Program-made: the position numbers and the translations under genes
Source: an uncultured Bacteroidales bacterium
GTDB lineage: Bacteria > Bacteroidota > Bacteroidia > Bacteroidales > UBA10428
Direction of reading: 5' to 3'
DNA length: 64,000 nt
Assembly: GCA_963822145.1 (NCBI GenBank)
Contig: CAWGGG010000005.1
Location: 221,899-285,898 of the forward strand
The notes under the pieces: generated by a model
Told to the model about the DNA's origin: nothing
The model's database searches: none
The model's input: only the letters and a program-made list of their open reading frames with translations
Part shown: piece after piece, positions 21,442 through 34,916 of the stretch
How the letters are laid out: each line of letters starts with the position of its first letter
Position numbering within the stretch: the stretch's first letter is position 1

Positions 21442-22785
21442 TTAAAGCACAATCGGCTTATCCATATATAAGTCGAGAATCTTCAGTTTAAAAATATATT
21501 CATATTTGGCCTGCAGCATATTTGACTGAGCGCTGATCAGGTTTTTCTGAGAAATGTTGTAATCGACGGAGTTTACCAGCCCTACCTCAAATTTCTGGCT
21601 GGTATATTTAAAGGCTTCCTCGTTATATTTCACGGCTTCAACGGTGGAGAAGTACTTTTCACGGGCTGCGGAGGCGTCGGCATGCGCCTGCTGAACTTCC
21701 TTGTAAAGGGCATTCTTAGCGATATCGTACTGCAGCTTGGTGTCATTCACCTGCAGTTTGGCATTGCTGATGGAGTTTTTGATCTGCAGCCTGTTGAATA
21801 TCGGAATGGACAATCCGAAGGTGACCTGTTTGTAAAAATTATCTCCCAGCTGTTCTTTTGCCGTATAGGTGCCATCGGGATCCATGGGATCGTCTACGTT
21901 GGGTGAATAACGACTGGACAGGTTACCACTCAGATCAAGTGAGGGGGATACCTGTCCCCAGGCCATAGCCAAATCTTTTTCTGAACTTTTGAGCGCATAA
22001 TCCGCACTGCGAATCTCAGGCATGGTTTGCAGGGCAACATCGAAGATATTCTGAACCGATTCCAGTGGAGATAAAACTTCCACTTCCATGTTCTTGGGCA
22101 CAACAATTTCAAAACCGGCCACCGAATCAAGATCGAGCAGCTGTGTAAGGTCGAGATAAGCAATATCCCGATTATTCTGGGCATTGATAAGCGCGGTTTT
22201 ATCGTCTGACTCCTGGGCCTTGATCTGCAGGTATTCTCCCTGTGCTACATTGCCCACCTCCATCATTTTGCGTGTCCGCTCAGCCTGCATGGAGGTCACT
22301 TCCAGTTTCTTTGCGGCAACATCCGTCAGTTCTTTGGCAAACAGGATTTGAAGGTATGCCCGGGTCAGCAACAGGGCCATGTCGTTCTTGGATTTCTCCA
22401 GATCAGCCTGGCTTTTTAAATAGTCGTACTTTGATTTCAGAATATTGTTATAGGTTTGAAGTCCTGAAAACAAAGTCATATTGCCGTTTAGTCCCATGTC
22501 TCCCGACCAGTAGTCCACATTGACATACTCCAGTTTTGCCATGTCAATGGACTTGCCCGAACTGTAACCGTAATTGACACCGGCATTAAAGCTTGGCACA
22601 GTATTGAAATAGCTTTGCGTGAGGTTGTTTTTATTGTATTGCACGTTCAGTTCCTGTCGTTTGACCTGTAAATTGTTTTCCAGGGCATAGTTGAAGCATT
22701 CCTGCAGCGACCATACTTTTTGTGCTCTAACCGGCATTAAACCTAACAGGCTCATAGCGCACAAAAACAATATTGCTTTTTTCAT
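21442..22785 (-). CDS. TolC family outer-membrane efflux protein
   Basis: 447 aa with a signal peptide and two-repeat coiled-coil/beta-barrel organisation (LQECFNYALENNLQVK..., typical TolC N-terminus). Confidence 0.85.
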   Translation of the reverse strand: MKKAILFLCAMSLLGLMPVRAQKVWSLQECFNYALENNLQVKRQELNVQYNKNNLTQSYFNTVPSFNAGVNYGYSSGKSIDMAKLEYVNVDYWSGDMGLNGNMTLFSGLQTYNNILKSKYDYLKSQADLEKSKNDMALLLTRAYLQILFAKELTDVAAKKLEVTSMQAERTRKMMEVGNVAQGEYLQIKAQESDDKTALINAQNNRDIAYLDLTQLLDLDSVAGFEIVVPKNMEVEVLSPLESVQNIFDVALQTMPEIRSADYALKSSEKDLAMAWGQVSPSLDLSGNLSSRYSPNVDDPMDPDGTYTAKEQLGDNFYKQVTFGLSIPIFNRLQIKNSISNAKLQVNDTKLQYDIAKNALYKEVQQAHADASAAREKYFSTVEAVKYNEEAFKYTSQKFEVGLVNSVDYNISQKNLISAQSNMLQAKYEYIFKLKILDLYMDKPIVL

Positions 22786-22820
22786 AAAAGAGAAGTTTAT
22801 TTGGTTTATTGCAATTATAA

Positions 22821-23114
22821 TTATTTAAGTTTTTTGCGATACAAAACATGGATATGATCTGCATGTTCGTCGGGATTGAATATCTGAATCAGTTCCCATT
22901 CTTTGTCATAATTTTCAATAGCGCTCTTTAATTTATATATTCTGGCCAGCGATCTTTCAAGAGGATCCGTGAGCGCTGAGAATTCATCCTTCACTTCCCA
23001 GGGGAATGATTCCACCCTGAAATTGTACCGGAGCCTCTGTCCGGCCAGGGTAACCTCCACATCGGCAATTTCCTGCTCTTTGAGGTAGGGTATGGGAATA
23101 CAGATCTCTTTCAT
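22821..23114 (-). CDS. hypothetical 97-aa protein (no TM segment, no signal peptide)
   Basis: Tightly packed between the ABC ATPase (12-nt gap) and the TolC gene (35-nt gap). I recognise no motif. Confidence 0.5.
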   Translation of the reverse strand: MKEICIPIPYLKEQEIADVEVTLAGQRLRYNFRVESFPWEVKDEFSALTDPLERSLARIYKLKSAIENYDKEWELIQIFNPDEHADHIHVLYRKKLK

Positions 23115-23126
23115 AGAATGCAGGAA

Positions 23127-23810
23127 TTATAATATCTGCCTGATGTTTTCAGTAACAATGTGCCCGTCGAACAATTGAACGATACGATGGGCCTTATCAG
23201 CGTCGGAAGGGGAGTGTGTAACCATAATGATCGTAGTTCCTTCATTGTTGAGTTCCGTAAGCAGGTTCATCACTTCTTCACCATTGGCTGAGTCGAGGTT
23301 ACCCGTGGGTTCGTCGGCAAGGATCAGCTGGGGCCTTGTTACTACTGCCCTGGCAATGGCAACACGCTGCTGCTGCCCGCCCGACAATTGCTGTGGAAAA
23401 TGTTTTTTGCGATGGGTGATCTTCATGCGTTCCAGCACATCAGCGAGCTTTTTTCTCCGCTCGGTCGCTGAAACTTTCAGGTAGAGCAAAGGCAGTTCCA
23501 CATTCTCATAAACCGTAAGCTCATCAATGAGATTAAAACTCTGAAAAACAAACCCGATATTCCCCTTGCGGAGATTGGTGCGTTGTTTTTCCTTGTATTT
23601 CGCAACTTCCTCGCCATGGAAGTAGTACTGGCCTCCTGTAGGCGTATCAAGCAATCCAAGAATGTTCAGCAGGGTAGACTTGCCGCATCCGGAAGGACCC
23701 ATTATGGCAACGAATTCACCTTTTTCCACGGTAATATTTACCTTGTTGAGTGCTGTGGTTTCCACCTCATCAGTGCGGAAAACCTTTACCAGATCAATAG
23801 TTTTTATCAT
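23127..23810 (-). CDS. ABC transporter ATP-binding protein, MacB/LolD type
   Basis: Walker A GPSGCGKST, signature LSGGQQQR and Walker B ILADEPTGNLD. 227 aa with no membrane domain. Confidence 0.9.
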   Translation of the reverse strand: MIKTIDLVKVFRTDEVETTALNKVNITVEKGEFVAIMGPSGCGKSTLLNILGLLDTPTGGQYYFHGEEVAKYKEKQRTNLRKGNIGFVFQSFNLIDELTVYENVELPLLYLKVSATERRKKLADVLERMKITHRKKHFPQQLSGGQQQRVAIARAVVTRPQLILADEPTGNLDSANGEEVMNLLTELNNEGTTIIMVTHSPSDADKAHRIVQLFDGHIVTENIRQIL

Positions 23811-23842
23811 AATGAGCGTATTAATTTTTGTAACTAAAGTTA

Positions 23843-25108
23843 TTATTTGTTTTTTTTCAGTATCAGCTTATCTGCGTCACCGAAGTTTTCATAGTCAGAG
23901 ATGATGACCTTCTCTCCGGGTTTCAGCCCTTCGAGGATTTCATAGAACCTGGGATTTTGCCGGCCCATTCTGACTTTGCGTCTTTCCGCAATATTACCCT
24001 CCGGATTCAGCACAAAGACCCATTGACCGCCGGTGCTCTGGTAAAACCCACCTTTTGGCAGCAGCAGGGCATTTTCGGATTCTCCGAGTTCAAGTCGGAT
24101 CCGTGCAGTCTGTCCGATCCTGATCTGCTCGGGTATAGGACTGGTGAATTCCATGTCAACCGCGAATGTGCCATTCTGTACTTCGGGGTAAACCTTTATG
24201 ATCCTGAGCGTATTTTTCTGCCCGGCAAAATCGAAATCTGCAGGAAGACCCCTGGAAATCCGCGTTATGTAATGCTCATCGATCATAACGCGCATTTTAT
24301 AGGAATCGAGAATATTGATGGTACCGATACGGGTGCCATAATTGATAACTTCTCCCACTTCCGGATGCAGCGTGGCCAGCTCCCCGTCAACCGGAGCCTT
24401 GATATCAAGATCTTCCAGTCTTCTGCGGGTAAGGTTCAGGTTTTTCTGCATGCGTTCAATGGTCCCTTCATCTGACTGAATCCGGGTTCTGGTGTACACC
24501 GAATCGCGCGCATATTTCTGTCTTTGCAGTTCAAGCTGCATCGTGGTCTCTTCATACTGTTCCCTGGAGTATTCAAATTCCTCTTTTGATATCAGGTTCT
24601 GCGTATTGAGCTTCTTGTTGTTGCTATACTGCCTTTCCAGTTTCTTTAACTGATACTCCAGCTGCAGGATGGTGGAACGGGTCTGAAGGTTCTGGTTCTC
24701 CAGGTTGATGCGGGCAGTTTTGAGATCATTCACGGCGCGGGATACATCTGCTTCGTTGCCTGAGATGTCGAGGAGCAGGTTATAATTGCTCAGGCGGAGT
24801 ATGACATCACCTTTTTTTACCATGGTACCCTCTTCAATCAGGATCTCCTCCACACGACCAGATTCCACTGCATCCAGATAGACAGTTTTTATAGGTTCCA
24901 CAGTACCGTTCACAGAAATATAGTCCTGGTATTTTCCGGCAATCACCTCTCCGATGGTAATCTTGTCCTTTTCAACATTCAGTTTGGCACTTTTATCTCC
25001 AAATGCCATTTGAAACAAAATCAGTAAGAATACCAGACTTCCGATGGCAATCCATATATGCTTTTTTTTCAGACCTTTTTTCTCGATTTTTCTATCCATT
25101 CCTTCCAT
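23843..25108 (-). CDS. HlyD/MacA-type periplasmic adaptor (membrane fusion protein)
   Basis: N-terminal TM anchor, long coiled-coil (LEYQLKKLERQ..., LELQRQKY), and lipoyl/beta-barrel regions. The first ATG is at 25108 (the track start at 25120 is TTG). Confidence 0.85.
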   Translation of the reverse strand: MEGMDRKIEKKGLKKKHIWIAIGSLVFLLILFQMAFGDKSAKLNVEKDKITIGEVIAGKYQDYISVNGTVEPIKTVYLDAVESGRVEEILIEEGTMVKKGDVILRLSNYNLLLDISGNEADVSRAVNDLKTARINLENQNLQTRSTILQLEYQLKKLERQYSNNKKLNTQNLISKEEFEYSREQYEETTMQLELQRQKYARDSVYTRTRIQSDEGTIERMQKNLNLTRRRLEDLDIKAPVDGELATLHPEVGEVINYGTRIGTINILDSYKMRVMIDEHYITRISRGLPADFDFAGQKNTLRIIKVYPEVQNGTFAVDMEFTSPIPEQIRIGQTARIRLELGESENALLLPKGGFYQSTGGQWVFVLNPEGNIAERRKVRMGRQNPRFYEILEGLKPGEKVIISDYENFGDADKLILKKNK

Positions 25109-25157
25109 GTGATGATACAAAAAAGCTGTAAATGAATATTATATTTTAACGTTTTTT

Positions 25158-25173
25158 AGCATGAATTGTGCCA
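25158..25173 (-). promoter_or_regulatory. sigma-54 (-24/-12) promoter candidate for the efflux operon
   Basis: The minus strand reads TGGCAC-AATTC-ATGCT against the consensus TGGCAC-N5-TTGCW. The GG and GC are correctly spaced, ~50 nt upstream of the ATG at 25108. A sigma-54-dependent regulator is encoded divergently. Confidence 0.55.
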
Positions 25174-25407
25174 TTTCTAATAATGGGTTAAAATACAACT
25201 AATTATTAAAATATGAATCATCCTGCAGGTGACTTTTTTGTACAAATTTGAAACACATGCAGTACGAAAACGGACAATCTCTATGGTTCACTTTTATTCA
25301 ATAAAGCAGCTGATCGTCCTGATATTATTCAAAGTAATTATATATTTTTGTTAAGCTGATGAAACAAGAAGGTTTGAGAAACTTACAGGAAGTAATAACC
25401 AGGAACC

Positions 25408-26784
25408 ATGAGTGAAAAAGTCGGAAATATTCTTGCCGTAGATGACAATGAGGACATTCTGTTTGCGTTGAAGCTTTTGCTGAAACCTCATGTCGAAAAG
25501 TTAACCGTTTTAAATAGTCCGGATAAGATCCCGGAAATACTGGGCAAGGAGAATTTCGACATGATCCTGCTCGATATGAATTTCAATAAGGATGCCATTA
25601 GCGGGCAGGAGGGCTTTGATTGGCTGGGCAGGATACTGGAAATTGATCCCCAGGCTGTTGTGGTTTTCATAACCGCATACGGTGATGCCGAAAGGGCAGT
25701 AAAGGCCATTAAATCCGGCGCCACAGACTTTGTGCTGAAGCCCTGGCAGAATGAAAAACTACTGGCCACCATATCTTCTTCCATCAAGTTGAGGCGTTCG
25801 AGGCTCGAGGCCAATGATCTTCGCGCCAAGCAAAAAGAGATGAGTGCTGTGATGGACCAGCCGTTTACCGATTTCGTAGGCAGTTCGGCCAAGATGATGG
25901 AAGTATTCAATACCATTAAAAAAGTAGCACAGACCGACGCCAATATATTGATCCTGGGAGAGAACGGTACGGGAAAGGAGCTGGTTGCCCGTGCTTTGCA
26001 CCGCAATTCTCCCAGACGTGACGAAGTATTTATCAGTGTAGACCTGGGCTCGTTGAGCGATACCTTGTTTGAGAGTGAATTGTTTGGGCATGAAAGGGGA
26101 GCGTTTACCGATGCTAAAAAGGAAAAGCCGGGTCGTTTCGAAATAGCGTCCAAAGGAACGCTCTTTCTGGATGAGATCGGTAACCTGCCCATGCCGCTGC
26201 AATCGAAAATACTTACCGTTATTGAGCGGCATGAGGTAACCCGGGTGGGGGCAAACCGGCCCATCCCGGTGGATGTAAGATTGATCTGCGCTACCAACAG
26301 CGATCTTTATGAGACAGTGAGCAACAACCTGTTTCGGCAGGATTTGCTTTACCGTATCAACACCGTTGAAATACACCTTCCGCCCCTGCGGGAACGTGGC
26401 GACGATATTGAATTGCTCTCCAATCACTTCCTGAAAATCTATGCCAAGAAATACCGGAAGTCACTAAGATCGATCACCGCTGCAGCACTTAAAAAGCTGA
26501 TGCATTACGCCTGGCCGGGCAACGTACGGGAATTGCAGCATGCCATTGAAAGAGCGGTTATCATGACGGAAACCCCTTCTCTTGAACCAGAGGACTTTAT
26601 TTTATCACCCCCGAGAAAGAAATCAGGAGACCTTGAATTTGAGACCTATAACCTGGATGAGATCGAAAGACAGGTGATAGAAAAGGTCATGAAACAGAAC
26701 CAGGGTAATATTTCTCAGGCGGCACAGGAACTCGGACTTACCAGAACATCTTTATATCGCAGGATAGAAAAATATGGGTTTTAG
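25408..26784 (+). CDS. sigma-54-dependent response regulator (NtrC/Fis family)
   Basis: REC domain (ILAVDDNEDI...LLDMNF), AAA+ domain (ILGENGTGKE, GAFTDA variant of GAFTGA, LFLDEIG) and a C-terminal Fis-type HTH (NISQAAQELGLTRTSLYRRIEKYG). Confidence 0.9.
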   Translation: MSEKVGNILAVDDNEDILFALKLLLKPHVEKLTVLNSPDKIPEILGKENFDMILLDMNFNKDAISGQEGFDWLGRILEIDPQAVVVFITAYGDAERAVKAIKSGATDFVLKPWQNEKLLATISSSIKLRRSRLEANDLRAKQKEMSAVMDQPFTDFVGSSAKMMEVFNTIKKVAQTDANILILGENGTGKELVARALHRNSPRRDEVFISVDLGSLSDTLFESELFGHERGAFTDAKKEKPGRFEIASKGTLFLDEIGNLPMPLQSKILTVIERHEVTRVGANRPIPVDVRLICATNSDLYETVSNNLFRQDLLYRINTVEIHLPPLRERGDDIELLSNHFLKIYAKKYRKSLRSITAAALKKLMHYAWPGNVRELQHAIERAVIMTETPSLEPEDFILSPPRKKSGDLEFETYNLDEIERQVIEKVMKQNQGNISQAAQELGLTRTSLYRRIEKYGF

Positions 26785-28129
26785 AAACTACCGGCTGAAT
26801 ATTATTTTTCGTGTAATCCTGCTGGTTGCGACCATTTACCTGCTCTATTACACACTTAAATCAAACTTGTTTATTGCGCCTGTCATTGTGGCAGTTATTG
26901 TAATATTTCAGGTGGCCTCTCTCATCCGTTACCTGGATAAAACCAACCGGGAACTGACCAGTTTTCTGCAATCCATAAGGTTCTCAGAATTCACCCGCAC
27001 TTTCCAGATTGAAGGGATGGGGGGGACTTTCAATGAGTTGAACAAGGCCTTCAATGAAGTTATGCAGGATTTTCAGAAAGTGCGGGCCGAAAAGGAAGAA
27101 AGCTTTCATTACCTGCAGACAATTGTGCAGAATATTGATGTAAGTGTGATTGCCTACAGCGCCGATGGCAACATTGAACTCATCAATAAAACCGCCAAGA
27201 AACTTTTCCAACTGGCTACCATCCGGAATATCAAATCGCTGGAAACCCTCAGCGCAGAATTGGTGACTACCCTGCTGAACATCAAACCTGGCGAGAACAA
27301 ACTGGTCAAAATCCAGTTCGAGGACGACATGCTGCAGCTGGCCATTTATGCCTCTACGATCAAGGTAAAGGACAAGCTCATTTACCTGGTGACCATCAAG
27401 GATATACAGAATGTACTGGAAGAGCAGGAAACAGAAGCCTGGCAGAAACTCATCCGGGTGCTCACCCATGAGATCATGAACTCCATAACCCCCATTGCCT
27501 CTCTTTCCTCAACGCTCGATCTGATGCTGAAGGGGATGGTGGCCCAGGGCGACAAGGAATCGCTGGAAATGGACCGGGAATCGGTGGGTGAGATACAGGA
27601 AGCACTGCAGACCATCAACAAACGAAGCACCGGCTTGCTCCATTTTGTCAATACCTACCGGAACCTAACCCGCATTCCCAAACCCAATTTCAGGCTTTGC
27701 AGCATCAAGGAGCTCTTCGAAAATATCGAAAAGCTCATGGAGGATGAAATCCGTAAATGCGGGGTGGAGTTCACCGTCAGGGTTGATCCCGAAAGTCTTG
27801 AATTTACGGCTGACGATCAGCTGATCGAACAGGTGCTCATCAACCTGCTGAAAAATGCCATCCATGCACTCAACGGCAAACCATCAGGGAAAATCCAGCT
27901 GTTAGGATTCATAAACAAAAGAGGTCGCATCACCCTGCAGGTGATTGATAATGGTCCCGGTATCCTGAAAGATGTACTTGATAAAATCTTCATACCATTT
28001 TTCACCACCAAACCCTCCGGATCGGGGATCGGACTGAGTCTGTCCAAACAGATCCTGCGTTTGCACAATGCCACCATAACGGCACATTCGGAGCCTGATG
28101 TGGAAACGATTTTTACCATGACTTTTTAG
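26774..28129 (+). CDS. sensor histidine kinase
   Basis: Two N-terminal TM segments, H-box LTHEIMNSITPI, N/G boxes (LINLLKNAIHAL, DNGPGI, GSGIGLSL). It overlaps the regulator gene by 11 nt. Confidence 0.85.
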   Translation: MGFRNYRLNIIFRVILLVATIYLLYYTLKSNLFIAPVIVAVIVIFQVASLIRYLDKTNRELTSFLQSIRFSEFTRTFQIEGMGGTFNELNKAFNEVMQDFQKVRAEKEESFHYLQTIVQNIDVSVIAYSADGNIELINKTAKKLFQLATIRNIKSLETLSAELVTTLLNIKPGENKLVKIQFEDDMLQLAIYASTIKVKDKLIYLVTIKDIQNVLEEQETEAWQKLIRVLTHEIMNSITPIASLSSTLDLMLKGMVAQGDKESLEMDRESVGEIQEALQTINKRSTGLLHFVNTYRNLTRIPKPNFRLCSIKELFENIEKLMEDEIRKCGVEFTVRVDPESLEFTADDQLIEQVLINLLKNAIHALNGKPSGKIQLLGFINKRGRITLQVIDNGPGILKDVLDKIFIPFFTTKPSGSGIGLSLSKQILRLHNATITAHSEPDVETIFTMTF

Positions 28130-28222
28130 GCTAAAGACTTTTAGGCTAAAGGCTTTTAGGCTTAAGGCTTGAAGCATCAGGTAACAACCTGACAGCCTAA
28201 TAGCCTAACAGCCTACTAGTCT
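28128..28222. repeat. inverted pair of short-unit arrays: AGGCT-type x6 (28128-28169) and AGCCT-type x4 (28194-28222)
   Basis: AGGCT/AGACT recurs every 7-8 nt starting inside the kinase stop codon. After a 24-nt spacer the complementary AGCCT/AGTCT recurs every 8 nt. This could form an imperfect long hairpin. Confidence 0.85.
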
Positions 28223-28273
28223 AATTTAGATTCATTCTACAGAATAATACATATAAACATATCTATATTTATC

Positions 28274-28281
28274 TATATTTG
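28274..28281 (+). promoter_or_regulatory. Bacteroidota-type -7 box candidate (TATATTTG)
   Basis: Matches TAnnTTTG, 14 nt upstream of the ATG at 28296. It lies inside the direct repeat atctatattt x2 (28261-28280). Confidence 0.3.
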
Positions 28282-28295
28282 TAGCAAATTTCATC

Positions 28296-28943
28296 ATGGA
28301 TACATCATCGATCAATATCCGTTACTCCGCACTGGCAGAAGAGTCCTGCTGTCTTTCCTGCGGCAGTGCCATCAATTTCGCTGAACCTCAGCCCGGGGAA
28401 TGTTGCATGGACCTCGGCAGCGGCAGGGGAACCGACGCATTGCGCATGGCAGAAGCAGTAGGTGAGAAGGGTTTCGTTTTCGGCGTTGATGCATCGGACG
28501 GAATGCTGGAAACAGCACAAAAAAATGCTGAAAAGCTTGGCATTTCCAACATCAGTTTCATGAAGTCGGATCTCGAAAGAATTGCCATACCGGGTGGAAT
28601 TGTTGACCTGATCATTTCCAACTGTACCATCAACCACGCTGCTGACAAGGTAAAGGTATGGGGCGAAATCTTCCGTATGCTGAAAGGGGGAGGCCGGTTT
28701 GTGGTAAGCGACATCTACGCGGTTGCCCCGGTGCCGGAGGATTACCGTAATGACCCGGTAGCTGTTTCGGAATGCTGGGCAGGCGCCATTACCCGTGATG
28801 AATATTTACAAACGGTTGCCCGGGCAGGTTTTACTGGAATACAAATCCTGGAAGAAAGCAAACCCTATGCAAAAGGTAAGGCTGAAATTGTTAGTTTTAC
28901 TATCTTTGGCAGGAAAGAGAAAAAATGCAGTTGTTGTTCTTAA
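28296..28943 (+). CDS. ArsM-like class I SAM-dependent methyltransferase with Cys-rich tail
   Basis: SAM motif CCMDLGSGRGTD. ArsM-like blocks LSCGSAINFAEPQPGE, VDLIISNCTINHAADK, GGRFVVSDIY and SECWAGAITRDEY. C-terminus EKKCSCCS. Confidence 0.8.
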   Translation: MDTSSINIRYSALAEESCCLSCGSAINFAEPQPGECCMDLGSGRGTDALRMAEAVGEKGFVFGVDASDGMLETAQKNAEKLGISNISFMKSDLERIAIPGGIVDLIISNCTINHAADKVKVWGEIFRMLKGGGRFVVSDIYAVAPVPEDYRNDPVAVSECWAGAITRDEYLQTVARAGFTGIQILEESKPYAKGKAEIVSFTIFGRKEKKCSCCS

Positions 28944-28963
28944 ATAACTATCTATCAAATATC

Positions 28964-29062
28964 ATGAAATCGCTGATATCAAAAAAGAAATCTCAGAAGA
29001 AGCAGAAAGTTGCTCAATGTTGTGCCAAAACCTCAAAAGTTGTAGCCGGCTGTCACGACTGA
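28964..29062 (+). CDS. unannotated 32-aa Lys-rich, three-Cys peptide (candidate precursor/scaffold peptide)
   Basis: ATG at 28964 to TGA at 29060-29062 gives MKSLISKKKSQKKQKVAQCCAKTSKVVAGCHD. It starts 20 nt after the methyltransferase stop and ends 11 nt before the radical-SAM start. It is below the 60-aa ORF-track cutoff. Confidence 0.45.
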   Translation: MKSLISKKKSQKKQKVAQCCAKTSKVVAGCHD

Positions 29063-29073
29063 CCCTTTAAATT

Positions 29074-30390
29074 ATGGAGCTTTCCAGGCACAACATTCTT
29101 TCCAGGATCCATCGCTCCGATGAATACTTCCTGGTGAATGTGCTTTCGGGAAATGCAGATATACTCACCTCCTTGGAAGCTCAGCGGGTATTGGACAGAT
29201 GTGTGCTGAACGACCCGGAATACATCAGCAAAGGTTATGTTGTAGATCCGGCTCAGGAAGAAAAGGAATTCCGCATGAAATACCTCGATTTTCTGGATTC
29301 CAGGGATACAGATGAAATCCAGTTGTTTTACGTTCCATCCTTTGCCTGTAATTTCAGTTGCTCTTATTGTTACCAGGAAGGTTACCTGAACCAGGGCCCG
29401 GAATACGGCCCGGAAGTGGCCGATGCGTTCTTCACGTATTTGCAGATGAATTTCGCGTCAAGAAAGAAATACATTACATTATTTGGTGGAGAACCCTTGC
29501 TTGCCGGTCAGAAGAGCCGGGAATTCCTGGACTTTTTCACCAGGAGATGCCGGGAGTTGGATCTCGAACTTGCCGTGGTAACCAATGGTTATAACCTGGA
29601 GGAATATATACCCCTGTTATCGCGTACCCGGATACGGGAGATCCAGGTTACGCTTGACGGACCCGAGACTATTCATAACCTGCGCCGTCCCCTTAAAGGC
29701 GGACAGGGTACTTTCAGCAATATTGTTAGAGGCATTGACACTGCGTTGACTGCCGGATTACCAGTTAACTTAAGGGTGGTGCTCGATCGTGAAAATATCA
29801 CTGCTTTGCCTGAGCTGGCTCACCTTGCCATCAGCAAAGGCTGGACAGGGTCACCATTGTTTAAGACACAGCTGGGACGCAATTATGAATTGCACTTCTG
29901 CCAATCCAGGCAATCCAGTTTGTACTCAAGGATCGATCTGTACAGGGACCTGTATGAACTTATCCTGAAGGATCCCGGTCTGCTGCAATTTCATCGGCCG
30001 GCCTATTCCCTTTCGAAGTTTCTTTTTGAGAACGGTGAACTGCCGGCACCCTTATTTGATTCCTGCCCTGGCTGCAAAACCGAGTGGGCGTTTGACTATT
30101 CCGGCAGGATATTTTCCTGCACCGCCACCGTGGGGAAACCCGGCGAAGCGTTGGGTTCCTTCTGGCCCATCGTTGATTTGAACAAGCAACGTATTGAATC
30201 CTGGCAACAGCGTGATATACTGAGCATTTCGTCCTGCACTGGCTGTAACCTCAGGTTGGCTTGCGGAGGAGGATGCGCCAGTGTTGCCTTTAACCGTGAA
30301 GATAACCTGCATGCGCCGGACTGCAGGCCGGTTAAAGAATTGCTGGAGCTTGGAATCTCTTTATATTCAACACTTGAAAGTGAAGCGTGA
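29074..30390 (+). CDS. radical SAM / SPASM domain protein (peptide-maturase-type architecture)
   Basis: CX3CX2C at Cys92/96/99 (FACNFSCSYCYQ) after a ~90-aa N-terminal extension. C-terminal CPGC...SC...CTGCNLRLACGGGC (CX2CX5CX3C SPASM motif)...DC. Confidence 0.85.
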   Translation: MELSRHNILSRIHRSDEYFLVNVLSGNADILTSLEAQRVLDRCVLNDPEYISKGYVVDPAQEEKEFRMKYLDFLDSRDTDEIQLFYVPSFACNFSCSYCYQEGYLNQGPEYGPEVADAFFTYLQMNFASRKKYITLFGGEPLLAGQKSREFLDFFTRRCRELDLELAVVTNGYNLEEYIPLLSRTRIREIQVTLDGPETIHNLRRPLKGGQGTFSNIVRGIDTALTAGLPVNLRVVLDRENITALPELAHLAISKGWTGSPLFKTQLGRNYELHFCQSRQSSLYSRIDLYRDLYELILKDPGLLQFHRPAYSLSKFLFENGELPAPLFDSCPGCKTEWAFDYSGRIFSCTATVGKPGEALGSFWPIVDLNKQRIESWQQRDILSISSCTGCNLRLACGGGCASVAFNREDNLHAPDCRPVKELLELGISLYSTLESEA

Positions 30391-30438
30391 AGGGTTATGG
30401 TTGTTGCGAAAGATCTTGAATTAATTACTTAACATATT

Positions 30439-31710
30439 ATGAAAGAAATTGTAACGACTGATTTTGAAAAAGAAGTACTGCAGGGGGGTAAAGTCGTACT
30501 TGACTTTTATTCCACCGAATGTCCGCCATGTGACGCTTTGGCGCCAAAATTTGAATCCCTTGCCGACCTGTATGGTGAGGATATAACCTTTCTGAAGGTA
30601 TTTCGCCAGGGTAACCGTGATCTGGCAGAACGTCTGAGTGTCCACAGTTCTCCCACCCTAATATTTTTTGATCACGGGCATGAGGTGGGCATCCGTTTAA
30701 GCGGAGGGATCAAGCGCTCTGAAATCCTCCATAACCTGAATGCCATGCTGCCGGCAGAAAAGGTTTCTTCGATCAAAAGTCGCATTAAACCTCATACCAG
30801 TCCGTATGATGTTGCCATCATCGGCAGTGGGCCGGGTGGACTCACCGCCGGATTATACCTCTGCCAGGCACGTATCAATACAGTGCTGATCGATACAGGC
30901 CTGCCGGGCGGGCATGTCAGTCTTACCCACCAGGTATCCAATTATCCGGGTTTCATTGATCCTCAGCCGGGTTACCTGCTTTCACACAACATGTCGGAGC
31001 AGACCAAGAAATGCGGCAGTGTATTTAAGGTAGCAGTGGATGTTACCCGCGTTGATCTTGTGAATAAGGAAATTGTCATTGATGATTTTGAAACGGTTCG
31101 GGCCAGGAAGATCATCATTGCCACCGGGACCTCCCCGAACTACCTTAATATACCCGGTGAGAAGGAGTTCAAAGGGAAGGGAATATCTTATTGCGCCACC
31201 TGTGATGCCAAGTATTATGGTGATAAAGAGGTTGTCGTTATCGGAGGAGGCAATTCTGCAGTGGAAGAGGCCGAGTTTATTACCAAATTCGCCTCCAAAG
31301 TAACCATGGTGCACCAGTTTGATAAGTTTCAGGCCAACAGGCAGGCCCAGGAGAAATTGCTGGCCAATCCGCGTGTGCAGGTATTGTTCCGTCACGAACC
31401 CCGGTCCTTTGTCCGCCAGGGCGACAAAATGATTGTTACCGTCGAAAAACTGGAGAACGGAAATCTCAGTGAACTGATCACGGACGGCATTTTCATTTTT
31501 GTGGGATTAAAGCCCAATATCGATCTTTTCGGAGGGGCACTTACGCTTGATGACTGGGGTTACCTGAAAACAGATGAGGATATGCGGACAAACCTTCCGG
31601 ATGTATATGCCGTTGGAGATGTCAGAAGCAAAAAATACCGGCAGATCACTACAGCCATAGCCGATGGGACTATTGCTGCCATCAGCATCACGAGGGAACT
31701 GGATAGCTGA
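30439..31710 (+). CDS. thioredoxin-fold domain fused to thioredoxin-disulfide reductase-like flavoprotein
   Basis: N-terminal ~105 aa is a Trx fold with CPPC (VLDFYSTECPPCDAL). It is followed by DVAIIGSGPGGLTAG (FAD), CATCDA (redox disulfide), VIGGGNSAVEEA (NADPH) and YAVGDV. Confidence 0.8.
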   Translation: MKEIVTTDFEKEVLQGGKVVLDFYSTECPPCDALAPKFESLADLYGEDITFLKVFRQGNRDLAERLSVHSSPTLIFFDHGHEVGIRLSGGIKRSEILHNLNAMLPAEKVSSIKSRIKPHTSPYDVAIIGSGPGGLTAGLYLCQARINTVLIDTGLPGGHVSLTHQVSNYPGFIDPQPGYLLSHNMSEQTKKCGSVFKVAVDVTRVDLVNKEIVIDDFETVRARKIIIATGTSPNYLNIPGEKEFKGKGISYCATCDAKYYGDKEVVVIGGGNSAVEEAEFITKFASKVTMVHQFDKFQANRQAQEKLLANPRVQVLFRHEPRSFVRQGDKMIVTVEKLENGNLSELITDGIFIFVGLKPNIDLFGGALTLDDWGYLKTDEDMRTNLPDVYAVGDVRSKKYRQITTAIADGTIAAISITRELDS

Positions 31711-31869
31711 TGGCGTGTTAAACTTTTGTTAAAATCGGCATATTAAGATCCTGGTTTTCTTTCTCTTATTGCATGAATAGCCCTTGCCGGAGCATCATGA
31801 TTTGAACCTGGCAGGGATTATTGTGTTTAATGTATATTAATTAATTTGAAACAAAAAAATGACTGCATT

Positions 31870-32508
31870 ATGAACATGAAAAGAATATCTCACGGAATTG
31901 CTGCACTCCTGCTGCTTTTTTCAGTTTCAGCAAATGTCTTGCTGGCTCAGAAACAAAATGCCTCAAACAAGTTTGCTATCAATACAGCCGATAGTAAAGT
32001 GAACTGGATGGGCAAAAAACCAACCGGGGAACATACAGGTTATGTTAAACTTTCCAGTGGCGAAATCCTCCTGGAGAAGAAAGAAATCAAGGGAGGCTCA
32101 TTTGTAATTGATCTCAATACAATTATCAATACCGATTTGAAAGATGAAGGTATGAATGGCAAGTTGGTTGGACATCTGAAATCACCTGACTTTTTTGATG
32201 TGGCCAAATATCCCACGGCCAGATTTGTGATTACCAAGGTCACCAAAGCTCCAGAGACGACTGCAGGCGCTCCAAAAGCTACCCATACCATCGAGGGAGA
32301 CCTCACCATCAAGGGAATCACCAAGAAAATCAGGTTTGATGCCAGTATCAATGAATTGAACGGCAAGGTAACGGCAAGCACGGCCCCCTTCACTATCGAC
32401 CGAACCCTTTGGGGGGTTAATTACCAGTCTAAGTCGGTTTTTGCCGAACTGAAAGATCAGTTCATTTATGACGACATGACATTGTCTATTGACCTGGTCA
32501 CCCAATAA
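31870..32508 (+). CDS. YceI family periplasmic protein
   Basis: Signal peptide from ATG 31870 (the track start at 31846 is TTG). YceI-like pattern KVNWMGKKPTGEHTGYVK...GDLTIKGITKKIRFDA. Confidence 0.75.
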   Translation: MNMKRISHGIAALLLLFSVSANVLLAQKQNASNKFAINTADSKVNWMGKKPTGEHTGYVKLSSGEILLEKKEIKGGSFVIDLNTIINTDLKDEGMNGKLVGHLKSPDFFDVAKYPTARFVITKVTKAPETTAGAPKATHTIEGDLTIKGITKKIRFDASINELNGKVTASTAPFTIDRTLWGVNYQSKSVFAELKDQFIYDDMTLSIDLVTQ

Positions 32509-32669: not shown

Positions 32670-34916
32670 ATGAGGAATACTTTTTTAGTCTTACTGATAA
32701 TTCTACTGTCGTGGTTGGTTCCATTCAAACTGGCCGGGCAGGAATCTGTATCTATAAAACGCTTGAAAGCGCCTGTTGATTTTGATGGACGCCCCTTTGA
32801 ACCGGCATGGGAAAATCTGGAATTCTTTCCGTTGATCCAGAACCGGCCAAATTTCGGCAATGCCCCGATTGAAATGACGGAAGCGATGGTCGCTTATGAC
32901 GATGAATTTCTCTGGGTGGGAGCCCGCCTGTATATGCGTGATGCATCGAAGATCTTTGTCAACAGCAAAAAAAGAGATGCAGAGCTGTTTGGATTTGATT
33001 CCTTCGGTATATTGCTGGACAGTTATAACGACAATGAGAATGCCCTGGTGTTTTTCACCACTCCAACCGGATTAAGGACAGATTATGCGGTTTCCAAGGA
33101 TGCGGTGGAAGACGGCGGCCAGCAAGGTCCTCCGGGCATGGGAGCCCTGAACTTCAGCTGGAATACTTTCTGGGATGTTAAAACCACCCGTGATGACAAG
33201 GGATGGTACGTGGAAATGCGGATACCTTTCTCGAGCATCCGCTTCAAGCCACAGGATGATAAAGCTGACATGGGGCTGATAATAAGCCGCACCATCAGCG
33301 CCAACAGTGAAACCGACACCTGGCCTGCCATTGATCCCAAATATGGTTTTATGGCCACCAATAAACCTTCGCAAGCTGCCACGATTGAATTTGAAGGGGC
33401 CAGACCGAAAAAGCCCGTATACGTTTCTCCCTATGTGATCGGGGGTTTTTCGAGGGACTGGGTGCTTGACAGCACGGAAACACAATACCTGTCGGATGAC
33501 AATCCCCAATACAATGCCGGTTTGGATATAAAATACAGCCTGAACAGCAATCTGACGCTTGACCTGACAGCCAATACCGATTTTGCCCAGGTGGAGGCAG
33601 ATGACCAACAGGTGAACCTCACCCGGTATGATCTTTTCTTTCCCGAGAAACGGTCGTTCTTCCAGGAACGATCCAGTTTGTTCAGTTTCGGCCTGGGGGG
33701 CATGTCTGATCTATTCTACAGCCGGAATATCGGTATATCTGAAGACGGCAATCCCATCAGGATCTATGGTGGGGCAAGGATGACCGGAAGAGTGGGCATG
33801 TGGGATGTCGGTCTTCTGGATATGCAAACCAAGGAATACAAGGAAACTCCAAGTGAGAACTTCGGCGTATTGCGTTTGCGGCGCCAGGTGATCAACCCGA
33901 ATACTTATGTAGGAGGTATTTTCACTTCGCGACTTGGCATGAACGGTGATCAGAACCTGGCTTACGGTCTCGATGGGATCTTCAGGCTTTTCGGGGATGA
34001 TTACCTCTCTGTCAAGGGAGCACAGTCTTATGACAAGGAGATGGGAACCAGTCTGGCATCCCTTGACCCTTCCTTTTTCCTGGCGCAATGGGAACGGCGT
34101 TCCGAAGAAGGCTTTGCCTACAATCTTGGATATACCTATACCGGTGAGAAATTCGCGCCCGGGATAGGATTTGTGCAACGGCCCGGCATACAGGGATTTC
34201 AGGGAAGTTTACTTTACGGCTGGATGCCCGGTGAGCAGTCCAAATGGTTCAGCATTATTGCAAAAGTTATTGGAGAGCGATATACCAGGCTTTCAGATGG
34301 AGGACTTGAAAACATGCGTATCATGCCACAGGTGGAGTTCAATACAAAGAAAGAATATGGCGGCGAGATTTCTCTGGAATATCAGCAAGAAGGCGTGTTA
34401 GAGGACTTCCCCCTGTCGGACAGCATCTGGATCGAAGCGGGTGAATATTCATTTGCCTCTTTGGGCTTAGAATTACGCACGCCGCAATCCAAGAAGATAT
34501 CGGGCTTTTTGGGACTGAACGGCGGGGAGTTTTATGACGGGAAGAAATATGGGGTAATGTTTGGTCCGATGCTGAATATTGGTGCCAGTCTGCAGCTTTC
34601 CGCTCATTATGAATTCAATGCCCTGCGCTTTCCCGACCGTGAAACCAATAATTCACTGAACATCCATGCGGTCAATATGAAGGCCCTGTATATGCTGAAC
34701 ACCAAAATCTCAGCCAGCATCATGGCGCAATATGTCAATACGGAGGATGATTTCGTATTCAATTTCAGGTTCCGCTATAATCCACGTGAAGGCAATGACT
34801 TTTATATCGTGTACAATGAGTATCGGGGTCTTGACGGAAACAATGAGATACCGGCACCTCCCTCATACTACAACCGGACCATCATGTTAAAATATACCCA
34901 TACATTCATTTTTTAA
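32670..34916 (+). CDS. CBM9-like/DUF5916-type outer-membrane beta-barrel protein
   Basis: Signal peptide. N-terminal region IKRLKAPVDFDGRPFEPAWENL resembles carbohydrate-binding family 9-like modules. The long beta-rich C-terminal part ends in an aromatic residue (HTFIF). The family call is from memory. Confidence 0.5.
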   Translation: MRNTFLVLLIILLSWLVPFKLAGQESVSIKRLKAPVDFDGRPFEPAWENLEFFPLIQNRPNFGNAPIEMTEAMVAYDDEFLWVGARLYMRDASKIFVNSKKRDAELFGFDSFGILLDSYNDNENALVFFTTPTGLRTDYAVSKDAVEDGGQQGPPGMGALNFSWNTFWDVKTTRDDKGWYVEMRIPFSSIRFKPQDDKADMGLIISRTISANSETDTWPAIDPKYGFMATNKPSQAATIEFEGARPKKPVYVSPYVIGGFSRDWVLDSTETQYLSDDNPQYNAGLDIKYSLNSNLTLDLTANTDFAQVEADDQQVNLTRYDLFFPEKRSFFQERSSLFSFGLGGMSDLFYSRNIGISEDGNPIRIYGGARMTGRVGMWDVGLLDMQTKEYKETPSENFGVLRLRRQVINPNTYVGGIFTSRLGMNGDQNLAYGLDGIFRLFGDDYLSVKGAQSYDKEMGTSLASLDPSFFLAQWERRSEEGFAYNLGYTYTGEKFAPGIGFVQRPGIQGFQGSLLYGWMPGEQSKWFSIIAKVIGERYTRLSDGGLENMRIMPQVEFNTKKEYGGEISLEYQQEGVLEDFPLSDSIWIEAGEYSFASLGLELRTPQSKKISGFLGLNGGEFYDGKKYGVMFGPMLNIGASLQLSAHYEFNALRFPDRETNNSLNIHAVNMKALYMLNTKISASIMAQYVNTEDDFVFNFRFRYNPREGNDFYIVYNEYRGLDGNNEIPAPPSYYNRTIMLKYTHTFIF

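Follow-up and report, generated by a model that had tools for sequence, protein, structure and literature searches.

A four-gene cassette linking a conserved cysteine peptide to a radical SAM/SPASM enzyme, a truncated ArsM-like methyltransferase and a thioredoxin-thioredoxin reductase fusion

What does an ArsM scaffold methylate when its gene is tied to that of a small cysteine peptide? This testable question is raised by four neighbouring genes within a 64,000-nt stretch of DNA from an uncultured Bacteroidales bacterium (assembly GCA_963822145.1, contig CAWGGG010000005.1, positions 221,899 to 285,898), referred to as the window in the following. The genes encode an ArsM-like S-adenosylmethionine (SAM) methyltransferase (MTase), a short cysteine peptide, a radical SAM enzyme (rSAM) with a SPASM domain, and a fusion of thioredoxin (Trx) with thioredoxin reductase (TrxR). 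An initial annotation of the window had listed them as four co-directional open reading frames (ORFs) separated by gaps of 20, 11 and 48 nt, and both coordinates (Table 1) and gaps were reproduced exactly. It had furthermore read them as one operon-like unit, which is supported by the gene set and gene order that we find conserved elsewhere. We argue below that the cassette is probably a new peptide-derived cofactor system or metal(loid)-handling system.

Conservation of the cassette and its peptide

We scanned one genome per species and found a relative of the rSAM encoded in 514 genomes, from which 80 loci were examined in detail. Based on tblastn, nearly all of these loci carry the MTase gene 5' of the rSAM gene as well as an adjacent Trx-TrxR gene. 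The suspected co-occurrence of all four genes, i.e., including the peptide, holds in essentially all 80 loci. Carriers are found among Bacteroidales, Spirochaetota, Ignavibacteriota, Myxococcota, Elusimicrobiota, Chitinivibrionales and Brevinematales, plus one metagenome-assembled genome (MAG) labelled Syntrophomonadaceae, such that the cassette is present in at least 8 phyla of mostly anaerobic bacteria. Only MTase, peptide, rSAM and Trx-TrxR are common to all loci, and the flanks differ by lineage. The four genes thus appear to be inherited as a self-contained, horizontally mobile module. Experiments are feasible, as there are carriers in culture: Spirochaeta isovalerica, with peptide MBB6478724.1, and Pleomorphochaeta sp. 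DL1XJH-081. The 'Syntrophomonadaceae' MAG (locus L033) and an 'Ignavibacteriales' MAG (L043) share an identical peptide and matching flanking gene clusters, which suggests mis-binning or a very recent transfer.

The peptide consists of a Lys-rich leader, MKSLIxKK, and a C-terminal core, AQCCAKxSxxxxGCHD, that ends at the stop codon. Some of the peptide genes start with GTG, TTG or CTG. There is a single precursor copy per locus, encoded between MTase and rSAM in all loci with enough upstream DNA except one (L054, see below). Among 78 peptide sequences, 11 of the last 17 residues are invariant throughout (78/78). Within the invariant core positions all synonymous codons are used, Ser codons of both the TCN and the AGY type among them; 23,738 codon differences are synonymous and 9,175 non-synonymous. 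Because the amino acids are conserved at the codon level, we conclude from the sequences that the micro-ORF is a real gene, on whose protein product strong purifying selection acts. Its initial reading as a genuine cysteine peptide is thereby upheld, and an absence from syntenic loci, which had been named as grounds for dropping it, was not found: the peptide is present in essentially all of them. An attenuator leader peptide was considered as well and ruled out by the amino-acid-level selection across the core.

We queried a large protein database with the peptide alignment, which yielded about 1,470 peptide clusters. All of them are labelled 'hypothetical' and none has a Pfam family; profile searches with the peptide gave no match in Pfam or NCBIfam. 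The exact window peptide is absent from a collection of 15 billion proteins that does contain its three enzyme neighbours from the same 299,630-bp contig, and was therefore never called as a gene in its source genome. A metagenome scan for the selenocysteine variant AQC-U-AK gave, among the matches listed (at least 120), only chance matches and none with the rest of the core. In the peptides of Myxococcota and delta-proteobacterial MAGs (L025, L047, L076), the linker between leader and core holds an extra CCAP motif. It echoes a second CC motif seen in one of the sister clades.

Sister clades with 40-45% rSAM identity keep both the architecture and the core, and in five sister-clade loci the peptide is encoded directly 5'. 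The respective peptides end in ...AQCCSKSSKIVAGCHG, ...AQCCSKSSKIVAGCHN, ...AKCCAKSSKRAVGCHD and ...ALCCAKQSSVKTGCHD. As they retain the core, the deep invariant is CC(A/S)KxSx4GCH(D/N/G)-COOH. One of the sister clades (L081, 5832-8184; L087, 1723-4142; L088; 41-44% rSAM identity) has a Cys-rich DUF5714 domain, either as a fused part of the rSAM protein or encoded directly behind it. The peptide of this clade carries the second CC motif, SCC(A/S), and has GCHG or GCHN as its end. The only NCBIfam match of the DUF5714 domain is 'metal-binding double selenoprotein MbdU' with 128 bits (cutoff 600). MbdU and ArsM-fusion selenoproteins were reportedly defined by Haft and Tolstoy in 2025 (mSystems) and by Haft and Gwadz in 2023 (J Bacteriol). 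A CsoR-type metal-sensing repressor is encoded near the cassette in L081.

The boundary of the system lies at about 36% rSAM identity, where both the peptide and the MTase type change. That is, locus L084 (357-2650; 36% identity) encodes a 48-aa peptide with WTCCLYVC, an rSAM and then a UbiE-like methyltransferase, which is not ArsM-like. This three-gene system is, by its sequences, probably another uncharacterised family of ribosomally synthesised peptides with post-translational modifications (RiPPs).

The three enzymes

With regard to the rSAM, both motifs pointed out initially (CX3CX2C and the SPASM motif CX2CX5CX3C) proved invariant in 72 homologues. The first comprises C92, C96 and C99 (72/72; Pfam Radical_SAM, E = 6e-19). 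The SPASM set is complete, with C334-x9-G-x4-C349, C388-x2-C391-x5-C397-x3-C401 and C417 as well as C276 and C331; 8-9 of the SPASM cysteines are invariant or nearly so, and C388, C391, C397 and C401 are all invariant. The best NCBIfam matches (bits/cutoff) are CefB (NF038107; 138/600), TIGR04463 (121/525) and PapB (NF047865; 94/340), followed by QhpD (TIGR03906; 71/453), the SCIFF maturase (TIGR03974; 66/425), anSME (TIGR03942; 59/349) and MftC (TIGR03962; 56/265). The rSAM is hence below the cutoff of every curated NCBIfam family. Its 25 best matches are mostly peptide or protein maturases, the rest being MoaA and viperin, and do not include any rSAM family of arsenic pathways (ArsS, ArsL). 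Membership in a characterised non-peptide family, which the initial annotation had listed among the grounds against its reading, is thus not what we see: anSME stays at 59 of 349 bits and ArsS/ArsL do not occur within the top 25.

The AF2 model of the rSAM has a pLDDT of 89. Its N-terminal domain (residues 7-76) is predicted as beta-beta-beta-alpha-alpha-alpha with a pLDDT of about 95, and this predicted topology resembles a RiPP recognition element (RRE). The enzyme is of the SPASM type with a predicted RRE-like domain, unlike the non-SPASM enzymes ArsS and ArsL. The best PDB match by both sequence and fold is CteB (5wgg), which aligns over the full length with E = 3e-17 and a TM score of 0.68. 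CteB is the thioether-forming SCIFF maturase and possesses an RRE. Taken together, the rSAM appears to be a peptide maturase whose nearest relatives mature Cys peptides.

The MTase reaches 190 bits against the NCBIfam arsenite methyltransferase profile PRK11873 (NF008823; cutoff 263), covering profile positions 60-239 of 272. Its closest PDB sequences are ArsM/AS3MT, and so are all of the 13 best PDB fold matches of its AF2 model (pLDDT 87; query-normalised TM score, TMq, 0.73-0.80). ArsM enzymes bind As(III) by the cysteines C72, C174 and C224 (numbering of CmArsM), with C44 serving the first methylation. C22, C110 and C160 of the MTase align with the former three and are invariant in 70/70 homologues. 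More generally, C18, C19, C22, C37, C110 and C160 are invariant or nearly so among these homologues, the N-terminal SCCLSCG motif is invariant, and most copies have a poly-Cys C-terminal tail (KKCSCCS in the window). What the MTase lacks are about 50 N-terminal residues, i.e., the C44 segment, and the whole C-terminal domain of ArsM. An invariant CC pair (C18, C19) precedes C22 by three residues where the C44 segment is missing, and its equivalence to C44 is ambiguous. Judged by profile, sequence and predicted fold, the MTase is a truncated, cysteine-complete mini-ArsM.

The fourth protein has an N-terminal Trx domain (CPPC) fused to a low-Mr TrxR (CATC). The fusion proposed in the initial annotation is borne out by the Pfam domains Thioredoxin and Pyr_redox_2 and by the CPPC and CATC cysteines, which are invariant in 68/68 homologues (CATCD in 66, CSTCD in 2). 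The protein scores 309 bits with TIGR01292, under the cutoff of 343. Its TrxR domain has the GxGxxG FAD motif and aligns with the Deinococcus radiodurans TrxR (2q7v) at E = 1e-70. In this alignment HRRDTLRA of D. radiodurans corresponds to HQFDKFQA(N) in the window protein, such that the arginines binding the NADPH 2'-phosphate are replaced. The same holds family-wide: all 68 homologues show HQF(D/E)xxQAN instead of the NADPH-binding HRRxxxR, with GGGNSA, FAD motif, CATC and CPPC kept. Since the three 2'-phosphate arginines are missing, the fusion would use an electron donor other than NADPH, perhaps NADH. Six loci (L056, L062, L066, L068, L075, L077) encode an extra thioredoxin of about 155 aa between MTase and peptide, which has an N-terminal hydrophobic, signal-peptide-like segment. 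Two of them (L062, L068) have no Trx-TrxR fusion nearby.

Candidate functions and gene context

The invariant core and the absence of exporter, protease and immunity genes point to a cofactor-like intracellular role, not put forward in the initial annotation, rather than to a secreted natural product. Our preferred reading, for which we consider the chances of being right and wrong to be balanced, is thus a module in which all enzymes act on one ribosomal peptide and mature it into an intracellular, cofactor-like product. The precursor would be translated from its own micro-ORF, and its leader MKSLIxKK would dock on the RRE-like N-domain of the rSAM, as suggested by the predicted fold and by analogy to CteB. 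The rSAM would then abstract a hydrogen atom within the core CC(A/S)KxSx4GCH(D/N/G). Most likely, a Cys sulfur is joined to the carbon of a neighbouring residue, i.e., a sacti- or ranthi-type thioether is formed, as the nearest relatives of the enzyme are CteB, CefB, TIGR04463, PapB and QhpD. At least a vicinal thiol pair should be left free by this crosslink. Subsequently, the MTase may bind the remaining thiol(ate)s, directly or via a bridging soft metal(loid), and transfer a methyl group from SAM. The missing ars context and the continuity with the neighbouring RiPP family of rSAM plus methyltransferase favour the peptide itself as methyl acceptor. The Trx-TrxR, probably linked to NADH or another donor, would keep the cysteines of peptide and enzymes reduced; alternatively, it might recycle a disulfide that is formed in each catalytic cycle. 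The product is expected to stay in the cell as a thiol/thioether redox factor or metal(loid)-handling factor.

Several points weigh against this proposal. For rSAM residues 1-85 there is no Pfam match (PqqD/RRE) even at E <= 10, so the RRE assignment rests on predicted structure. Thioether formation is only the modal activity of the neighbour families, and the rSAM is below the cutoffs of all of them; SPASM enzymes also form C-C and C-O links, epimerise, and oxidise Cys to formylglycine. The C-terminal Asp would make an attractive acceptor for a ranthionine; sister clades have N or G in its place. Locus L054 (6001-8599) encodes rSAM and Trx-TrxR with no MTase or peptide within 6 kb on either side, and is the sole such exception among the examined loci. 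A correlation between the three enzymes in their pairwise distances (rho 0.35-0.47, Mantel p <= 0.003) counts in favour of the proposal, but shared phylogeny accounts for part of it. For a peptide to be methylated at S, N or O in a simple way, neither the ArsM cysteine triad nor a reductase is required, such that both features fit metalloid methylation better. Finally, the type of modification, the modified residue and the methyl acceptor are assigned by analogy only, and co-transcription is an indirect conclusion.

The point about methylation leads to the first alternative, namely a peptide-scaffolded methylation of metal(loid)s, which we regard as possible but somewhat doubtful. The initial annotation had offered it as one of two hypotheses, the other being a methylated RiPP with thioether crosslinks. 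Here, the CC...CH core would chelate As(III), Sb(III), Se, Te or another soft metal for the mini-ArsM. The rSAM crosslink would perhaps pre-organise the core, or the rSAM might make a peptide carbon-metalloid bond. A Challenger-type oxidative methyl transfer would leave a disulfide to be reduced by the fused Trx-TrxR. The invariance of all As(III)-binding cysteines of ArsM, the poly-Cys tail of most MTase copies and the uniform ArsM/AS3MT fold matches all suit this explanation. ArsM catalysis does form a disulfide that is reduced by Trx/TrxR, and an obligatorily linked reductase is better explained this way than by peptide methylation; full cysteine set, tail and obligatory reductase therefore favour a bridging metal(loid). 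The ligand set CC...C(H) of the peptide presumably resembles the CCx4C site of ArsD. Cys-rich accessory partners, i.e., DUF1847 and DUF5714 (MbdU-like, with 128 bits vs. a cutoff of 600), and the CsoR-type repressor at one sister locus add to this side. On the other hand, the MTase is below its arsenite methyltransferase cutoff (190 vs. 263) and without the N-terminal segment and C-terminal domain of ArsM, and it is not obvious why a carrier peptide would need an rSAM maturase with an RRE. A core that is invariant nearly everywhere and a wide distribution across ordinary anoxic habitats suit a housekeeping function better than one specific to stress. Arsenic resistance genes, moreover, do not recur nearby, as the following census indicates.

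We assigned Pfam families to 112 immediate flanking genes from 61 diverse loci. Within this census, no ArsR, Acr3, ArsB, ArsC or ArsP recurs, and neither does an exporter or leader peptidase. The initial statement that the cassette is not a canonical ars operon agrees with this census, by which such an operon is ruled out. Recurrent accessories are MarR (11), DUF1847 (10), DUF6132 (5), DUF302 (2) and rhodanese (2) as well as extra thioredoxins, which by their families seem to be thiol- or metal-type proteins. The Cys-rich DUF1847, which has no NCBIfam family, is found inside or beside the cassette in 11 loci: between rSAM and Trx-TrxR in five (L024, L072, L074, L078, L079), 3' of Trx-TrxR in another five (L022, L026, L028, L035, L040), and 5' of the MTase on the opposite strand in L061.

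A second alternative is that of a conventional arsenic detoxification unit, i.e., arsM plus trx/trxR (arsTX-like) beside an unrelated rSAM, with the micro-ORF being a regulatory leader or a chance ORF. It draws on the annotation of the MTase as 'arsenite methyltransferase' by JGI pipelines and on Trx/TrxR being a known reductant of ArsM. However, selection acts at the amino-acid level over 17 peptide residues and thus beyond regulatory codons, rSAM and peptide accompany MTase and TrxR in nearly all loci, phyla and sister clades, and there are no ars genes nearby. We therefore hold this explanation to be very improbable; conservation, peptide selection and neighbour census appear to have largely refuted it already. 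Given the JGI label, arsenic-methylation surveys of paddy soils, sediments and guts may count a gene of different function.

The third alternative is a secreted sactipeptide or ranthipeptide, i.e., a bacteriocin or signal, with a tailoring methyltransferase and a reductase that supplies electrons or keeps cysteines reduced. An RRE-type rSAM/SPASM enzyme beside a short Cys peptide is the classic architecture of such systems, and in the close Bacteroidales clade an HlyD/ABC/outer-membrane efflux protein (OEP) set and a two-component system are encoded just upstream. Yet the synteny of these genes with the cassette is confined to close relatives, and outside this one narrow clade neither an exporter nor a leader peptidase (of C39 or another type) nor an immunity gene recurs. 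Furthermore, the core is essentially invariant over at least 8 phyla, while antimicrobial RiPP cores are usually variable, and each locus holds one precursor copy. A secreted product is thus improbable in our view.

A further-reaching reading can be put forward tentatively, as something we would not call probable. In it, PQQ and mycofactocin would be joined by a third peptide-derived cofactor of wide distribution. A CC...CH peptide constrained by a thioether would bear a reactive sulfur species or a soft metal(loid) (As, Sb, Se, Te or a transition metal), the ArsM-type enzyme would alkylate this species while it is bound to the peptide, and the dedicated Trx-TrxR would recycle the thiols. If true, this would be the first organometal(loid) chemistry scaffolded by a ribosomal peptide, and a sizeable share of the 'arsM' genes counted in anoxic metagenomes would not be arsenic-detoxification genes.

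The layout of the window locus is summarized in Table 1. The initial annotation had noted a -7-like box before the MTase, namely TATATTTG at 28274-28281, 14 nt 5' of the ATG. Taken by itself, the motif shows no enrichment across the window (40 found vs. 48.8 expected). This copy, together with an upstream ATATAAACATAT block, is kept in all 13 syntenic Bacteroidales loci aligned (13/13): the respective columns are invariant or nearly so, and the box is located 13-20 nt before the MTase ATG. Box and block are therefore taken as a real promoter footprint, in which the ATATAAACATAT block may act as operator of the cassette or as an upstream element of its promoter. A simple scan gave three weak terminator-like sites, all within coding sequence, vs. 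4.1 expected by chance. Co-transcription of the cassette is inferred from the spacing, from the promoter footprint kept among the relatives and from the fact that no internal terminator is convincing.

Table 1. Cassette genes and further sequence features of the window locus (window positions)
Feature	Positions	Strand	Basis
ArsM-like SAM methyltransferase (MTase) ORF, 215 aa	28296-28943	+	ORF scan of window
Precursor peptide micro-ORF, 32 aa, MKSLISKKKSQKKQKVAQCCAKTSKVVAGCHD	28964-29062	+	ORF scan, comparative conservation
Radical SAM/SPASM (rSAM) enzyme ORF, 438 aa	29074-30390	+	Profiles, motifs, AF2 model
Trx-TrxR fusion ORF, 423 aa	30439-31710	+	Profiles, invariant redox motifs
Promoter footprint: ATATAAACATAT block, then Bacteroidota -7-type box TA(T/C)ATTTG	28253-28281	+	13/13 syntenic loci
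Hairpin of inverted TTAGGCT-type arrays, between kinase gene and cassette	28131-28229	+	Folding energy, shuffles

Two further promoter candidates were rejected. A TAnnTTTG motif at 28901, which might have served as internal promoter of the peptide, overlaps the mostly conserved codons of the C-terminal TIFG segment of the MTase and is therefore likely coincidental. A sigma-54 promoter under the control of the NtrC-type regulator encoded upstream was dismissed, since no such element is visible and the two-component synteny is found in close relatives only; here, TGGCAC-N5-TTGC-like elements before the MTase were looked for by eye, without a pattern search.

The hairpin between the kinase gene and the cassette is built of about four TTAGGCT-like repeats followed by inverted copies. 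It is highly stable (-40.8 kcal/mol, z = -4.4), with 0/200 shuffles being equally stable. In the initial annotation it was seen as an insulator of the cassette. While the hairpin itself is real, this role as a conserved element did not stand: the structure is specific to the window and not present in the corresponding intergenic region of 12 syntenic Bacteroidales relatives. It is therefore a local insertion outside the system and looks like a lineage-specific inserted repeat element.

Upstream of the hairpin, the gene of a sigma-54-type response regulator (25408-26784) overlaps by 11 nt with that of a histidine kinase (26774-28129). Divergent genes for an HlyD adaptor, an ABC ATPase and an outer-membrane efflux protein adjoin this pair (21442-28129 in total). 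3' of the cassette follows a YceI-like lipid-binding protein (31846-32508), which is also found in 17 related Bacteroidales loci and not in other phyla, and after it a DUF5916 protein (32670-34916).

Comparison with known systems

No curated family of NCBIfam (release 20) or Pfam covers the system, and no description of it was found in the accessible full-text literature, from which subscription literature is largely absent, including the Haft papers on related selenoproteins. The initial impression that no curated RiPP class fits is in line with NCBIfam scores far below all cutoffs and a peptide without match. That is, an rSAM/SPASM peptide maturation unit is of a known kind, while the precursor family, the combination of enzymes, the truncated ArsM and the Trx-TrxR without NADPH motif match no curated family. 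This is a large unnamed gene system that spans at least 8 phyla, with at least 514 carrier genomes at the species level and about 1,470 clusters of the peptide; its central gene is usually unannotated or labelled 'hypothetical'. Its set of partners is unprecedented and brings together the enzymology of RiPPs and the redox biochemistry of metalloids and thiols.

Among individual enzymes, the full-length profile match to CefB (Cys-every-fifth) aligns rSAM residues 1-431 with profile positions 1-430 and thus includes the N-domain, and TIGR04463 (rSAM next to a Cys-rich peptide) is matched over residues 33-406. The names of both families refer to RiPP precursors rich in Cys. However, scores of 138/600 and 121/525 are far below membership, and precursor motif and partner genes are different. 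The MTase shares with ArsM/AS3MT the fold (TMq 0.73-0.80) and the invariant cysteines equivalent to C72, C174 and C224 of CmArsM. In vitro, Trx/TrxR serves ArsM as thiol reductant. In contrast to ArsM, the MTase has only 215 aa, an adjacent CC replaces the C44 region, the C-terminal domain is missing and the score is low (190 vs. 263); among the examined loci it is never part of an ars operon and is instead linked to peptide and rSAM.

A pairing of a TrxR-like flavoenzyme with a thiol-directed SAM methyltransferase on a vicinal dithiol is known from gliotoxin (GliT/GtmA) and holomycin (HlmI). These compounds are non-ribosomal products of aerobes, made with O2-dependent dithiol oxidases without fused Trx, whereas the cassette encodes a ribosomal peptide in anaerobes.

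The SCIFF system of Clostridia (CteA-CteB/ScfA-ScfB) likewise has a single rSAM/SPASM maturase with an N-terminal RRE (predicted here) next to a short peptide that is rich in Cys and highly conserved. Both systems are widespread in anaerobes and have neither a dedicated exporter or protease nor a known physiological role. They differ in the maturase (66 bits for the cassette rSAM vs. the SCIFF cutoff of 425), in the peptide, which has three Cys in a CC...GCH core here and six Cys in forty-five residues in SCIFF, and in the partners, since SCIFF loci are without ArsM-like MTase and Trx-TrxR fusion.

PQQ (PqqA/PqqE/PqqD) and mycofactocin (MftA/MftC/MftB) are also made from one small precursor, whose C-terminal core runs up to the stop and hardly varies, by an rSAM/SPASM enzyme with RRE (again predicted for the cassette). 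They share the absence of an exporter and a wide, patchy distribution consistent with modular transfer. On the enzyme side the distance is large: the rSAM scores 56 vs. a cutoff of 265 for mycofactocin, and PqqE is only a distant fold match. The cassette core is thiol-based with no Glu/Tyr or Val-Tyr, and its partners are the ArsM-like MTase and the Trx-TrxR. Overall, with its invariant core and its gene content, the cassette resembles PQQ, mycofactocin and SCIFF more than antimicrobial RiPPs.

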